64,000 bases of DNA. It comes from Candidatus Danuiimicrobium aquiferis (GTDB lineage Bacteria > Omnitrophota > Omnitrophia > Omnitrophales > Danuiimicrobiaceae). The stretch is taken from contig MHFR01000037.1 in assembly GCA_001804285.1 (NCBI GenBank), positions 149,952-213,951 on the forward strand. Direction: 5' to 3'. This document shows, piece by piece, positions 1 through 6,000 of this stretch (position 1 is the first letter of the stretch; each line of letters begins with the position of its first letter). Under the pieces are notes generated by a model. That model was given only the letters and a program-made list of their open reading frames with translations, did not search any database and was not told where the DNA came from. Both the position numbers and the translations under genes were made by a program.

Positions 1-3000
1 CAGTGTTGCCGGACGGACAGGAGTCATTGTGACCCTTTCAACTTCAATTACCACTCTCTTATCAGAATCCACCAATGTCACGGGAATCGTCATAACAACT
101 CCCGCGGACGGTGTAATTAGCAACTCTTTCCGGTCTTTCAATTCGAACTTGGCAGATTTCAACGCAACCACAGAATTTTCACTCAGAGCCTTCTGCAATT
201 TATCCGCAGTTTCCGGCTGATCAGAACTCATTCCCATGAATTTCATTCCCGCCAAATCGCTAAGTCGATAAAGAATATAAATAAACTTGGACACATCCTC
301 TACATGTCCGGCCCCGATCAATCTCCGGAGGAGATAAGCCATTCGCATCGTCGTTAGTGTGTTGATAAACACATTGAATTCCGGAGATGCGTTCACGTCG
401 CTGCCCAAAGCGTCAAAGAACTGGGTATTGGGCGCCGTATTTTTGAGGTCTAAAATAACGCCGGTTTCCGTTATTTTAAACGCTTCAAACCGGACCTTAC
501 CCCACTGCTGCTGAAGTGCTTTAAGATTAGCTTTCTCGCGAAAATAAAGCGTATTCGTAAGATGGTTATCCGTCAATTTTCCGAATTTCCCGGTTCCGAC
601 TCCGCTGACATCCAAGACAAAAAGAATCGACATTAAACCAAGGAAACGATCCACATTGATTCCTTCCGCTTCGAGCCCGGTTGTCACATTCGCAGGCACC
701 GATTCTCCGAACGGCAGGCTTCCGAAATCTGCTTCCCGTACTGTCAAATTCCGCAATAGAGCCGCTTCGACAGGATTAAATCCAAATTTTTGAGCCAATG
801 CTTGGATCAAACGGCCTCCAACATCCGTATGGAGCGGCCCTGAAGTCACCACACGGCCGAAATCATGAAGGACAACCGCAACCGCCAATAACTCTTTGTC
901 GCGCGTATTCAATCGATAATAATTCGTCCGGAGCTGATCGAGCAAACTTTCCGAAACGCGCGCTCCTTTTAAAACATGATTCTGGAAGAACTCGAAATTT
1001 CCAAGTCTCAACGCATTCAATCCTTCAAGAATAATATCCTGATGCATCTTAAACGTCGCATAATCGTCTTTTCCGTCTCCGGTTTTCCATGCCACACCGC
1101 GGATTTTTGCCAAATCTTGCCAACCAAAGATACCAACCTGGTTGAATTGACTAAAGACTTTCATCGGATCTATTTCTGATGGCATACTGCTCTTCAAACT
1201 TCCGGGCAGTTGATCAATAAAGGCAAGAACGGCTTGTTCAACCTCGTTTTGCGCACGCGTAAGCGCTGCACCCGTCAATTCGGGATTGTATGCGGCATTC
1301 ACCTTCGCGGAAAATTCGGGCGTCATGATCGAGCGGACTTCGGAGCGCCCGAATGTGCGCATTTTTTCTGCGGCAAACATTCGCGCTTGGTCGTGAATCA
1401 ACGCCTCTGCTTCACCGTATGTTTTGGCATGGATTTCTTTCGCAAACGCAGCCACGCGCGCCAAGAAAATCGATCCCAGTCGGGCAGGGATTAAATTCCT
1501 TTCAGCTTCAGTTTTATTATCCAGATAATATTGAAGAAATGCGAAAACGATTTGTGCCCATTCATTGGAGGTGAGCGAAAAGGCCGCTTGCTCTGCGGCA
1601 TTCAAGCGGTCCAGAATCGGAATGATCTGCGAAAAGCGTTTTTGGTAGTACGCGCGGTTTGCGCGGTAACCACTCTTGAACGCGCTCATCCATTCTTCCG
1701 GATTAAATCCACTCAAAATCAGATCGGCTGCGGGTTGTTTCGCCACTTCCGCCGGCGGACCACTTTCGCCGATCGCTTGAATATCGGAATTGTTTACGCG
1801 CGCCTTCCACCATTCAGGATGATCTTCGATTTGAGCGAACAACAGCTTTACCACTTCAACATACACAGCTAATTTCTCCGGCGATAGCGGACCTAATTTG
1901 TGAACTTTTTCTCCCAGCCAAACGTCTTGAGCCTTCCCACCGCTACCGATCGCCGATGCCGCAAAAAATTCCTCATCCGGAATCACCGCCGTCCAAATGG
2001 CATCTTCCGCCAAGAAATTCGTGAGCATATTTCCCGTCACCGCAAATTCACCGCCGTTCGGCATCCGGATCGATTTTCCGAACATCGCGCTAAAAAACGG
2101 ATACATAAAATGGCTGATCAGGGCAGAATCGTCTTTGCCGTAAGACCTGATGTAATTGGGCGACACATAAGCAGCGTTTCCCCTGAAAACCGGATTCAAT
2201 AATTTTTGTACCCAGTCTCCTTCGATGATTGAATCGCCGTCCAGCGAAAGAAATGCTTTGGCCTCCGCACTTTCCGCCGCCTTCATGGCAAGCCTGGATG
2301 CCCATTTCTTTCCGACAAGTCCCGCATAAGCCTCTTCCTTGCCGAATCCTCTAACAATAATTCGCGTGTCTTGTCCGTTCAACAACGCAGCTTGCTTTTG
2401 AACCGTAGCCATCGCCACTTTTGCCGCAGAGCCTTTCGTCTCCCCAATCACATAAATAAACGCTTTCTGCCCTTCACTTAAATATTCTTGCAGCGATTGA
2501 TGAACCGTCCGTACTAACTGAACGACATCCACCCGGCGTCCGGTTGTTCCCGGTATATTATTCTCAGCAATTTCGTTATACATCGGAATTAAAACAACAA
2601 TGTCAGCACGACCAACTTCCGCTTTCACCGCCGCCAGTTCTTGCGTGTTCACCTGACTCGCATCAAACGCCGCCAGCATCTCCTCTGGCGTCAACGTGCG
2701 GACTTCGGAGCGTTGCACGGTATCCGCAGCTGCCGGTCTGGCAGACGATGGCTCCAGGTATTGCAAAATAATTGACTCCGCAGCAACAGCGGCAGGCGAT
2801 AGGTCTCCCGGTTTATTCTCGATAAATTTTGGCGCCCAATTGTGGATCCTGTCCATCTGCCACCTGATATCTTTCACAAGACCGAGCAACGCATCCGGTT
2901 CATCTTTCTGGAAATGAAGGATTTGCGTTCCGGGAGCAGCGACACCTGTCCGGAGACTTTCCTTTACCTGCTCTATATATGAAGGCAACGCGTACGTATA

Positions 3001-6000
3001 GAATTGAGGTTGCGGTATTGAATCCGCCGGAATTATTATCTTGTCGCCGTCTTTAACTTCTTTTTCGGTCCACTGTTTCTCAAAAATTCGTTTAGAGACG
3101 AGCAAGCTCTGCGGCGCATGGATGAGAACCACATTCCGCGGCGTAATGCCTTCTCGGTTTAAAATCGCGAGCACGGTCTCAATATTTGCCCCGGTATTCA
3201 TCGAAGCATCCGCGGAGTCCCAAAGCATTCTGTTCTCATCAACAAGCTTTAGTTCATTTTTTAAATCCAGTTTCAGGACTGCCTCACTCACACTTTGCCA
3301 TTCAGCAACCGCTCCCGTCCCTTTGCCGACAAAAAGAACCTTCCCGGGAAGATCAAGCTCCTTCAGTGCGTCAACGACATGTTGAGGATAGCCGGCCAGC
3401 GGATTCCCAAGAACCACGATCACATCCCGCGCCGCATCCCATTGAGTGCGGTCAAGGACCTGATCTCTGTCAGGAAACGCCAAATGATCGAAATCCGTTT
3501 CAGCGGCAGTAGAAACTTGAGACAGGGTTAACGAGACAGGAGACACGATACTGCTTGCCTTTTCACCCTCTGTCATTCCCGCACTCTTCACTTCCTCTGT
3601 CATTCCCGCAGGCTTTAAGCGGGAATCCACAGTCTCCCTTGCTTGCCCCTTGTCTCTCGCCCCTTCCTCCACGCGAGCTTCGGAACGGGGTTCCTTCCCT
3701 GCTTGATCTTTTGCCCTTGCAATCAATTCATTGATGCCAGAAACTTCCAAATCCTGGCGTGCACGTTCAGGATCTCTTGCCGTATCAATAACTGCATTAA
3801 CCAATCTATCCAAAACCCGAATTTCTTGAGGGAAAATCCTCAAAATAGTGCCCTTTTTATATTCTTCAAATCTTCTGTCGACAATAAAATTCGGATCCTC
3901 AATTTTTACCCCAAACTGATGCTTTAAGCGATACAGCCTCAAAATATCGCCCATAAACATTCCTTCTGGCTTACCAACAATAGTCGTTTTCTCCGCCAGA
4001 AGATCTTGCAACCCTTGCTGATATCCATACAAATATCCCTCAGCATCGATTCCCATTTGTAAAACCGATGCTCCAGTATTTCCGGAATAAGCGGTTCTTG
4101 TCGTTGAATCAAATAGAATACGCCTGGGATAAAAGGCATGGGATTGATTCGCTTTCTTATCGTCTTTCACTTGAACTACTGTCGGACCAGCATACTGAAC
4201 TTCCACACCTTCAAACATTACAGGACGTTTGGGATCCGGATTAAGCAGCTGATCTACCGAAACATTAAGCGCTCTCGCTAATTTTTCCAACTGCTTCAAT
4301 GCATATTGATAAATTCTTTCATTACCAGACACAACTTTAGCGGAAAATTCATTTCTTTCTTCATCTAACAATCGCACTTTAATCCCAATATCAATGTCTT
4401 TTGGTATCTTATCAAAAAAGAGATCCCTCACGGATCCTCCAGCCACAACAACATCCTCAATTTGATTTTGTTTCAATAGGTGAAGAAATCTTGCAAGGCG
4501 TTCAACATGATTAAACTCAATTTTTCCCGTTTTGAGAGCCTTCTCAGCTAATGCTTTATTAAAATCAGGAGACATTTTTATTTCAAGTAATTCCTTTGGC
4601 AATTCACCATGTTTATAAAGGTATTCCAAAAAATTTTCCGCTCGCTCAGAAGAAACAAAAGCAAACGATCTTCTACTTGTTTGCCATTGTTTCTCATAAA
4701 TAGGCTCGGAGCTAGGATGTTCGGCTGATTTGGTCGTATCTCTATAACCCACAACTACTTCAACTTCCTCAGAATGTTCATAATCTTGTTGGCTGAACTT
4801 AATGCGAGAAAATAGTTCTCGTAAAATAAGCTCGGAGTGCCCAATCAAATCGGGATACTGCGCAAAAAGAGCTATTAGTTTACGGTATAACGCTATTCTT
4901 TTTTTCGTGAGAATATCGAAATCTACGGACACACCACCATCCAAAGACAATCTAGTCCAATGTTGCATAAAGCTTTCCCATATTTTGAATTCATAGGGCG
5001 CCGATGGGTTCGAAACGCGAAGAGAAGCTATTGCCTGTGCCTTTTCCCATATGTAGAACCAACCTTTGCTTGGTGTCTGAGCAGCTTGAAAATTAGAATA
5101 ATAGTGATCACAGAGTAAAAAAGCGAAAACTATTGCACCGGCATCTCCCGTTTTTAATGGGGTTGCAATCGCCCGGGCTATACTTTCACTGTTGGCACCG
5201 AATTGAACAGCTGCTCTTAGTCTAACTAATGCTGCCTCCAAGCTGTTTTTAAGCCAACTTACATCGGCCGAATCAAAATAAGCTGGAGCATTATCATATA
5301 AAGGAATATTCAATAAAGCATTTCTTATTTTTTCATTAACATCAGATGACAACGCAGGCTTAATATCCATTAGAGTTTGCACTGCTCTTACCTCAGCCTG
5401 AGCAATACCGCTATGATCGTTCAAGACAGAAATACAAATAGATGCAATTTCATTATCAGTCAGATTTAATCTTTTCAACACTTTATCCGCATCATCTTTA
5501 CCAAATTTCTTTATTGCAGAAATCGCAACAAGCAATTTCGCATCTGGAATCCCTAATCGTGTTGCAACTTCAACAGCAATGAGAGGATTCTGAAATTCTT
5601 CAAGTGCTAAAGCTAAAAACTGCTGAAATTTTTCGGCACCCACATTGTTGTCTTTTAATGCAACAACAAGTAATTCGACTTGGCCAAAAGCGCCCATTTT
5701 ATTGAGAGCGGCTATAATCAATTTTCGATCTATTTCACCATTTCTATTAAAGAATGCAGCAACAAGAGGGCTAACTGCTCTGGCATCCCCTATATTACCA
5801 AGACTTTCTATTGCATATCGACGCCAAGAGTCATTATTTTCTGTTAGCAAATCACTGAAAATTTCAACGGCACGAGTATCATTATTGTTAGCAAGAACAC
5901 CTGCAGTCACCCCCCGAATGTGTGGGGGACTGTTTATGCTCCTTGCTGCTTCAATAAGCGGCTCAATTGAGGGACTACCAATTCTGGTAAGAATCTCGAC

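Follow-up and report, generated by a model that had tools for sequence, protein, structure and literature searches.

Does the far end of a giant gene encode one composite enzymatic machine, or several enzymes that share a polypeptide? The question is raised by a 64,000-nucleotide stretch of DNA from Candidatus Danuiimicrobium aquiferis (contig MHFR01000037.1 of assembly GCA_001804285.1, positions 149,952 to 213,951; the whole stretch is referred to below as the window), in which a minus-strand reading frame runs without stop codons from position 35241 to position 1. A first-pass annotation, made from the letters alone, had described at 560-4520 of this frame a pol-beta nucleotidyltransferase (NTase) head of the CCA-adding and poly(A) polymerase type, an alpha/beta domain, a family 2 glycosyltransferase (GT2) and an HD phosphohydrolase. 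The five motifs that it quoted are all present on the minus strand in one frame: GGSVRD at 4440-4423, PKDIDI at 4404-4387, IVVLIPMYNE at 2601-2572, LDGD at 2244-2233 and VVLHDFGR at 876-853. The module was located correctly, and its true span is slightly wider, 10-4551. We consider it fairly probable that this region consists of four independently folding enzyme cassettes in a membrane-anchored giant protein assembled by cassette shuffling, and not of a co-evolved machine of NTase, glycosyltransferase (GT) and HD domains. The C-terminal 1,500 amino acids (aa) comprise four recognisable enzymes that are probably active.

A product of 12,008 aa is called for the giant gene on two contigs, NCBI MHFP01000041.1 (GCA_001804245.1) and one ENA contig; compared with the codons present in the window, this places the C-terminal ~274 codons outside it, past the left edge. 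Residues are numbered here from position 35241 (wf numbering; the true protein position is wf minus 13). A hydropathy scan of the giant protein gave ~35 hydrophobic segments, and its N-terminus resembles a signal peptide. No Pfam families are listed in the public record of the 12,008-aa product. A Pfam scan of the C-terminal 2,000 aa in the window returned HEAT_2 (3.3e-9) and HEAT_PBS (2.6e-6) above the cut-off and DUF218 (6e-4), HD (2e-3), Glycos_transf_2 (6e-3) and PolyA_pol (6e-2) below it, while the remaining 9,800 aa had no Pfam match below E 1e-4. An NCBIfam scan gave only weak CCA/PcnB motif matches. The first-pass annotation had named a lack of significant profile hits as a sign against its domain calls, and with all enzyme-domain matches of the query below the Pfam cut-off that sign is there; profiles built from relatives and fold comparison support the domains all the same.

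Cassette 3, as far as its sequence can be read, is an intact GT-A enzyme of the lineage of glucosyl-3-phosphoglycerate synthase (GpgS) and mannosylglycerate synthase (MGS). It matches the profile of its GT family with 282 bits over profile positions 6-404 of 437, and among PDB sequences this profile finds GpgS (1e-17), MGS (3e-9, over the GT-A and the helical domain) and mannosyl-3-phosphoglycerate synthase, MpgS (9e-9). The cassette alone scored 17.1 bits with Glycos_transf_2 (PF00535), whose gathering threshold is 23.3, and phmmer searches of PDB sequences with the whole module and with the GT region gave chance matches only. Among 40 stand-alone relatives, 27 were matched by Glycos_transf_2 (E<=1e-3), 15 by MGS_GT and 37 by the NCBIfam model of GpgS. 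The 262-bit equivalog cut-off of NCBIfam NF010496 was reached by none of them (best E among the 40, 1.9e-23; P0038, 31.8 bits). With scores so far under the cut-off, the family of cassette 3 is therefore a sister or related family and not GpgS itself.

The conserved features of cassette 3 are PMYNE, GK, D-G-D, Y.R, GGEF and LGEKVH. In 24 giant-embedded GT copies, DxD, GG[ED]F and K..H are each kept in 23-24 copies and GK in 22-23; the Glu of YNE is kept in 21 of the 24 and the Arg of Y.R in 20. The first acidic nucleotide-binding motif, SDGGS.D, reads IGETKGS in cassette 3, and this IGE variant is itself kept in the giant-embedded copies (G in 20/24, E in 15/24). With GpgS (GT81) and MGS (GT78) the cassette shares the GT-A fold, DxD, GK, GGE[FY], the His motif LG.K.H and an MGS-like C-terminal helical domain; unlike them, it has IGE in place of the first acidic motif. 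A classical inverting GT2 was rejected on the MGS_GT matches, the matches to GpgS and MGS structures and those to the NCBIfam GpgS model. The first-pass annotation was thus right in seeing a DxD glycosyltransferase and wrong in its class. The solved enzymes of GT81, GT78 and GT55 are retaining and glycosylate glycerate-type acceptors. In size, cassette 3 equals the stand-alone members of its family (400-435 aa).

Cassette 4 is an HD unit. In fold its nearest neighbour is a class II CC-adding enzyme, and in sequence the uridylyl-removing HD region of GlnD. Its AlphaFold2 model (predicted local distance difference test score 90.1, predicted template modelling score 0.90) has the HD fold. Its best solved match is 3WFO-3WFS, a class II CC-adding enzyme (PMC4810234; 10.1101/2021.08.20.456953); the Foldseek ranking agrees, and the HD domains of PPX/GppA are also near. 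H61, D121 (in LHDFGR), H132 and E174 are each kept in >=90% of 18 aligned relatives, and most rows of the alignment also show a His just before D121 and, at about position 210, the Asp of LDV. The metal site and fold thus bear out the HD phosphohydrolase call. A 408-aa piece of the cassette scored 21.2 bits with the HD family (PF01966), whose gathering threshold is 22; 9 of the 18 relatives match this family at E<=0.1, the best at 1e-5. NCBIfam GlnD models match 11 of the 18 at the HD region (best 5e-12), these matches covering only model positions 444-491 of 782 and 536-662 of 940 and lying far under the cut-offs. No other part of GlnD is matched, and the Pfam scan showed neither a GlnD-type NTase nor ACT domains, of which GlnD has two. 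The first-pass annotation had likened an NTase head followed by HD to CCA-adding enzymes and GlnD, and for the HD unit this comparison was apt. Class II CC-adding enzymes, PPX/GppA and the HD region of GlnD share with cassette 4 the helical HD fold and a metal site of the pattern H...HD...H...D. Unlike them, cassette 4 is ~400 aa long, with an extra C-terminal alpha/beta part, no ACT domain and, in most relatives, no adjacent NTase; solved HD structures have 13-16% identity to it.

The alpha/beta domain noticed between NTase and GT, cassette 2, has the DUF218/YdcF fold. The assignment comes from a structure model and a fold search, which found a YdcF-like fold; a search of PDB sequences with the DUF218 profile gave no match. 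The cassette scored 21.9 bits with DUF218 (PF02698; gathering threshold 27.6), and this family is matched at E<=0.1 by 5 of 7 relatives of the cassette. E. coli YdcF is 16% identical to cassette 2, which differs in being fused into a giant protein. Relatives of YdcF in the DUF218 family include SanA and ElyC.

Cassette 1 we file as a putative divergent class II NTase head-neck. Its best matches among 5.8 billion proteins are 450-aa enzymes with PolyA_pol and PolyA_pol_RNAbd domains (PF01743 and PF12627; E 1e-3 to 2e-2), to which it is 27-28% identical over ~190 aligned residues of head and neck, 64% of the query. Motif A, GGSVRDLFFDKIPKDIDIG, is invariant with respect to seven PF01743 proteins and in all four aligned copies of the cassette (GG.[VI]RD, DID); copies of the cassette occur in P0010 (three) and in P0014. 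A profile of the four copies matched, among PDB sequences, human, Bacillus, Thermotoga and Aquifex CCA- or A-adding enzymes and E. coli poly(A) polymerase (1e-5 to 1e-3). Against the protein database it found only a fragment of the window protein itself. The top two PDB matches of this profile are designed repeat proteins (dTor); they consist of many weak repeated matches to a 30-residue stretch and were set aside. The matches to PF01743+PF12627 enzymes and to solved CCA and poly(A) polymerases agree with the NTase head of the first-pass annotation.

With class II tRNA NTases and poly(A) polymerases, cassette 1 shares motif A (GGxVRD..DxD), GLxDL (here GLQDL), two residues of motif D, D and R (EDPVR, here GDILR), and a putative counterpart of the Glu on the strand after motif A. 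Unlike them, it has SGN for the RRD of motif B, G for the E of motif D, a place inside a giant protein and, judging by the alignment, an insert of ~30 residues after motif A and before the Glu strand. Motifs B (RRD) and D (EDxxR) are the nucleotide-selecting motifs of class II NTases. The Glu of VEVQYAG is present in all four cassettes and is the putative third carboxylate; MAFFT does not set it opposite the Glu of IEVATFR in the CCA-type proteins. In the Pfam scan no PF12627 RNA-binding body or tail followed the neck, the cassette stopping at ~290 aa before a low-complexity linker, and the match to PF01743 spanned only 23 residues with 14.2 bits (gathering threshold 23). A CCA-adding enzyme was rejected for cassette 1 on these grounds: no RNA-binding body or tail, and motif B replaced. 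Where the first-pass annotation asked whether catalytic residues are intact, the DxD of the GT, the His and Asp of the HD unit and motif A of the NTase are conserved among relatives, and motif B of the NTase is lost.

The relation among the four domains was approached through their occurrence elsewhere. An exhaustive phmmer search with window positions 1-3600 (a 1,200-aa query, which leaves the NTase cassette outside) against 1.84 billion representatives returned 648 proteins at E<=1e-3. The matches form three non-overlapping blocks, DUF218-like (~270 aa), GT (~450 aa) and HD (~390 aa). The strong ones are mostly very long proteins of 1,000-7,850 aa, and for the GT block there are in addition numerous stand-alone matches, proteins of 400-435 aa with 25-30% identity. 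The four blocks were then mapped, by phmmer followed by profiles, on 157 retrieved proteins, 42 of them large relatives. P0010 (7,840 aa) has the order NTase, NTase, GT, NTase and no HD; P0023 has HD then GT; P0025 has HD and, ~2,000 aa later, DUF218; P0027 has nine HEAT-like units followed by DUF218. About 20 proteins have, of the four blocks, the HD unit alone. The HD unit occurs in ~20 large relatives that lack the NTase cassette, and in five other giants a Pfam scan of the 600 aa before and the 300 aa after the HD unit turned up no NTase family at all. The window protein has one copy of each cassette; NTase, GT and HD-core matches otherwise occur together in P0014 alone. Among the GTDB species representatives scanned, the sole relative is a Ca. 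Omnitrophica metagenome-assembled genome (MAG), 46% identical over query residues 442-602, that is, over the DUF218 cassette and ~20 residues past it, beyond which the sequence differs.

Since each block is found elsewhere by itself or in a different order, the four domains do not form a conserved architecture. We conclude that they are separate cassettes, whose behaviour as mobile units argues against a functional meaning in their local order. The idea of a conserved fused NTase-GT-HD machine is therefore not upheld.

Two further observations concern the relatives. Between the last membrane hairpin and the NTase cassette lie ~530 aa of HEAT repeats and more helical repeats (window 5100-5700), which match nine tandem units in P0027; this stretch is therefore a repeated helical scaffold module in its own right. 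Some 250 aa past their last cassette, P0019 (...AAFEAAKAVAKSA), P0034 (...ESFEAMQAVKSSA) and L005 (3-2582; ...SFVAAQAKVLASA) end in similar sequence, which suggests a shared C-terminal domain or signal.

The cassettes are separated by linkers in which a pentapeptide, RSE[VALM]R, recurs. The giant protein has 7 copies (0.16 expected) and the 42 large relatives 91 (2.9 expected); the other open reading frames (ORFs) of the window, 8,228 aa in all, have none. Three copies lie exactly at the three inter-cassette linkers of the module, and the motif directly precedes GT cassettes also in P0012, P0014, P0015 and P0017. Of all 98 copies, 19 lie within 25 aa of a cassette end, zones that make up ~4% of residues, and 4 lie inside cassettes, which make up 15%. 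The residues flanking the motif are not conserved, and its Ser codons differ among copies (AGT and TCC), so that the peptide and not the DNA is under selection; a recombination signal at the DNA level was excluded on the same ground. The motif, which is not mentioned in 10.1101/2023.11.21.568195 or 10.64898/2026.06.07.730766, may be a processing or docking site.

This distribution gives some room to a polyprotein, in which RSE[VALM]R would be the cleavage site of a dedicated protease that turns the giant precursor into free enzymes (NTase, YdcF-like, GT, HD and others), a reading compatible with the shuffled cassettes that we prefer. The excess of the motif here and in large relatives, its absence from the other ORFs, its concentration at cassette ends, its variable flanks and its codon variation, which points to selection on the peptide, would all fit. 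So would the bracketing of the GT cassette by the motif (wf10844 and wf11299; likewise in P0012 and P0017) and the size of the motif-to-motif stretch, which is that of a stand-alone homologue. On the other hand, the motif is missing from 22 of the 42 large relatives, no protease partner was identified, and the motif could equally be a binding, phosphorylation or structural capping site; the words "cleavage", "linker" and "polyprotein" are absent from the main text of 10.64898/2026.06.07.730766. We therefore regard cleavage at the motif as unlikely, if worth keeping in mind. Somewhat less likely still is the full form of the proposal, namely that one 36-kb ORF is a bacterial polyprotein cut by a dedicated endoprotease into many separate enzymes, in the manner of viral polyproteins. 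We know of no polyprotein-type expression of cellular enzymes at such a scale; if true, it would be a new gene-expression strategy for them. In either case RSExR offers a testable handle on whether giant proteins act intact or cut.

A second alternative would pair the NTase and the HD unit as writer and eraser, as in GlnD and in HD-bearing bacterial CCA enzymes: the NTase would nucleotidylylate a protein or the 3' end of an RNA, and the HD unit would take the nucleotide off again or repair the end. Both cassettes do lie in one polypeptide, the NTase falls in class II with CCA enzymes and poly(A) polymerases, the HD unit has its best match to a named sequence family in the HD region of GlnD, and P0014 also has NTase and HD-core matches. 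Between the two, however, lie ~820 residues, with two cassettes of unrelated kind and three RSExR linkers. In P0010 the NTase occurs three times without an HD unit, ~20 large relatives carry the HD unit but lack the NTase cassette (in the five checked by Pfam, no NTase family was seen up to 600 aa upstream), and the NTase lacks the RNA-binding body, the tail and motif B. The pairing is improbable on this evidence, which comes from a biased sample of relatives.

Where the enzymes would act depends on the side of the membrane. The last two hairpins before the module are rich in lysine and arginine (K/R) on both flanks and have none in the loop; for the earlier one (wf9221-9271) the count is 4 K/R in the 20 residues on either side. 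The positive-inside rule then predicts a cytoplasmic location for the last ~2,300 residues, a call in which we place moderate confidence only, since the K/R count is crude. Such a placement agrees with enzymes that need nucleoside triphosphates (NTPs) and nucleoside-diphosphate sugars (NDP-sugars), and about half of the catalogued giants are predicted to have cytoplasmic enzyme regions (10.64898/2026.06.07.730766).

The first-pass annotation had suggested that the activity could be anchored at the cell surface or on a target cell, and the module might indeed be displayed at the surface, or sent into a prey or host cell, to nucleotidylylate or glycosylate a target there. Roles in attachment and predation have been proposed for giant Omnitrophota proteins, the N-terminus is signal-peptide-like, a TolC/membrane-fusion protein/RND export system lies directly upstream, and in such proteins HEAT repeats are reported from predicted extracellular regions only (10.1101/2023.11.21.568195). 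Outside the cell, however, NTPs and NDP-sugars are not available; the K/R distribution predicts a cytoplasmic C-terminal region; the Pfam scan of the C-terminal 2,000 aa within the window found no adhesin- or secretion-type domain; and none of the four cassettes matched a PADLOC defence model. We hold this view to be distinctly improbable, and a defence-system reading was rejected for want of any PADLOC match among the four cassettes. Least credible of all is that the domains are degenerate relics, mere structural filler in a scaffold protein: the sub-threshold single-sequence Pfam scores, the vanished motif B and the change of SDGGS.D to IGETKGS would suit it, whereas the catalytic residues of GT, HD and NTase are kept across relatives of only 25-45% identity and the IGE variant is itself conserved in giant-embedded GT copies.

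Several points weigh against the shuffled-cassette reading. No single-sequence Pfam or NCBIfam match to the four enzyme domains reaches a curated cut-off. In the NTase, motif B and the Glu of motif D are changed in the alignment to PF01743 proteins, and the profile match to solved enzymes is confined to the motif A region. The sample of relatives is biased, with many fragments among them and the NTase absent from the exhaustive search, so that co-occurrence of NTase and HD is poorly sampled, and P0014 does carry NTase, GT and HD-core matches together. The topology comes from a hand count of K/R at two hairpins and not from a topology predictor. Finally, HEAT repeats have been reported in such proteins only in predicted extracellular regions (10.1101/2023.11.21.568195), and here they lie between the last hairpin and the module.

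If four shuffled cassettes are nonetheless what the region holds, the giant protein would be a membrane-anchored string of enzymes, built by cassette shuffling, whose enzyme region two helical hairpins would hold on the cytoplasmic side and whose cassettes would be joined by linkers bearing the conserved RSE[VALM]R pentapeptide. Each cassette would be active on a substrate of its own. The NTase would transfer a nucleoside monophosphate from an NTP to a hydroxyl; the GT, metal-dependent through its DxD, would transfer a hexose from an NDP-sugar with retention; and the HD unit, also metal-dependent, would hydrolyse a phosphoester or phosphodiester of a nucleotide-type substrate. Coordinates are collected in Table 1.

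Table 1. Features of the giant gene and its product in the window (wf, residue numbering from position 35241)
Feature	Position	Strand	Remarks
Giant gene, in-window part	1..35202	-	11,734 of 12,008 codons; ATG start at 35202
Last membrane hairpin before the module	6160..6279	-	wf9655-9694; 2-residue loop without K/R; 5 K/R per 20 aa on each flank
HEAT repeats	5704..5967	-	wf9759-9846; helical-repeat region upstream of the enzyme cassettes; Pfam HEAT_2, HEAT_PBS
Cassette 1, class II (PolyA_pol/CCA-type) NTase head and neck (putative)	3685..4551	-	wf10231-10519; without RNA-binding body or tail
RSEAR linker motif	3673..3687	-	leads into a low-complexity linker that joins cassettes 1 and 2
Cassette 2, DUF218/YdcF-fold alpha/beta domain	2749..3522	-	wf10574-10831
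RSEVR linker motif	2698..2712	-	directly before cassette 3
Cassette 3, GT-A glycosyltransferase and C-terminal helical domain, GpgS/MGS type (predicted)	1354..2658	-	wf10862-11296
RSEVR linker motif	1333..1347	-	directly after cassette 3
Cassette 4, ~400-aa HD phosphohydrolase unit	10..1215	-	wf11343-11744; HD helical core and C-terminal alpha/beta part
RSE[VALM]R copies	first bases 33261, 33177, 31515, 6336, 3687, 2712, 1347	-	also in P0011-P0034 and L005:3-2582

Upstream of the giant gene, at 35437-46069 on the minus strand, lie genes for a helix-turn-helix (HTH) regulator, a TolC-like outer-membrane efflux protein, a membrane-fusion protein and two AcrB-type transporters of the resistance-nodulation-division (RND) type. 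This arrangement is the same on the four contigs displayed, with housekeeping genes farther upstream. At 58710-62541, three tRNA genes (tRNA-Gly-GCC, 58710-58785; tRNA-Leu-TAG, 60787-60870; tRNA-Lys-CTT, 61132-61205) adjoin a plus-strand tyrosine-recombinase (phage integrase) gene at 61327-62541 and a zeta-toxin/AAA-like ORF at 59955-60563, and the region may be the edge of an integrated element. One database protein of 381 aa, P0001, is a fragment whose best local alignment with window ~2950-3880 shows 100% identity; inspection by eye reveals two substitutions and, at the N-terminus, 70 unrelated aa. Its source is probably a gene with a frameshift or a wrong call on a short contig from a strain variant.

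How does this protein compare with known ones? Giant multi-enzyme membrane proteins of Omnitrophota have been described in two preprints, by West-Roberts et al. 2023 (10.1101/2023.11.21.568195), for the "Archaeovorin" type, and by Nielsen & Lui 2026 (10.64898/2026.06.07.730766), in a catalogue of 916 proteins. HEAT repeats, glycosyltransferases, methyltransferases, HAD and HD domains abound in proteins of this kind, whose functions are debated. The first-pass annotation knew of no described architecture like this one. That holds for the exact domain string, while enzyme-loaded giant Omnitrophota proteins as such are on record in both papers. Their main texts mention neither a nucleotidyltransferase nor DUF218, and the text of 10.64898/2026.06.07.730766 does not name PF01743, PF00535, PF02698 or PF01966. 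Because the cassette families fall below the Pfam thresholds and go unmentioned in the giant-protein papers, these families extend the repertoire and do not amount to a new kind of system. Three families are new to it, a minimal class II NTase, a YdcF-like domain and a GpgS/MGS-like GT, and a distinct family of HD units is described within the HD class already present in the catalogues. Profiles combined with structure can thus annotate "dark" giant proteins.

The window protein belongs to the already described class of enzyme-rich giant proteins of the Omnitrophota. It has 12,008 aa, ~35 hydrophobic segments, HEAT_2 repeats and four enzyme cassettes, and its closest genomic relative is the Ca. 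Omnitrophica MAG. With the class it shares a length of >10,000 aa, many transmembrane segments, HEAT repeats, strings of enzymes that include glycosyltransferases and HD domains, and few recognisable Pfam domains. It differs in the class of its glycosyltransferase, GpgS/MGS-like GT-A here as against the reported GT5, GT1 and starch synthase, and in its neighbourhood, where TolC-like, membrane-fusion and two RND transporter genes lie upstream as against the type II secretion or pilus genes described in those papers.

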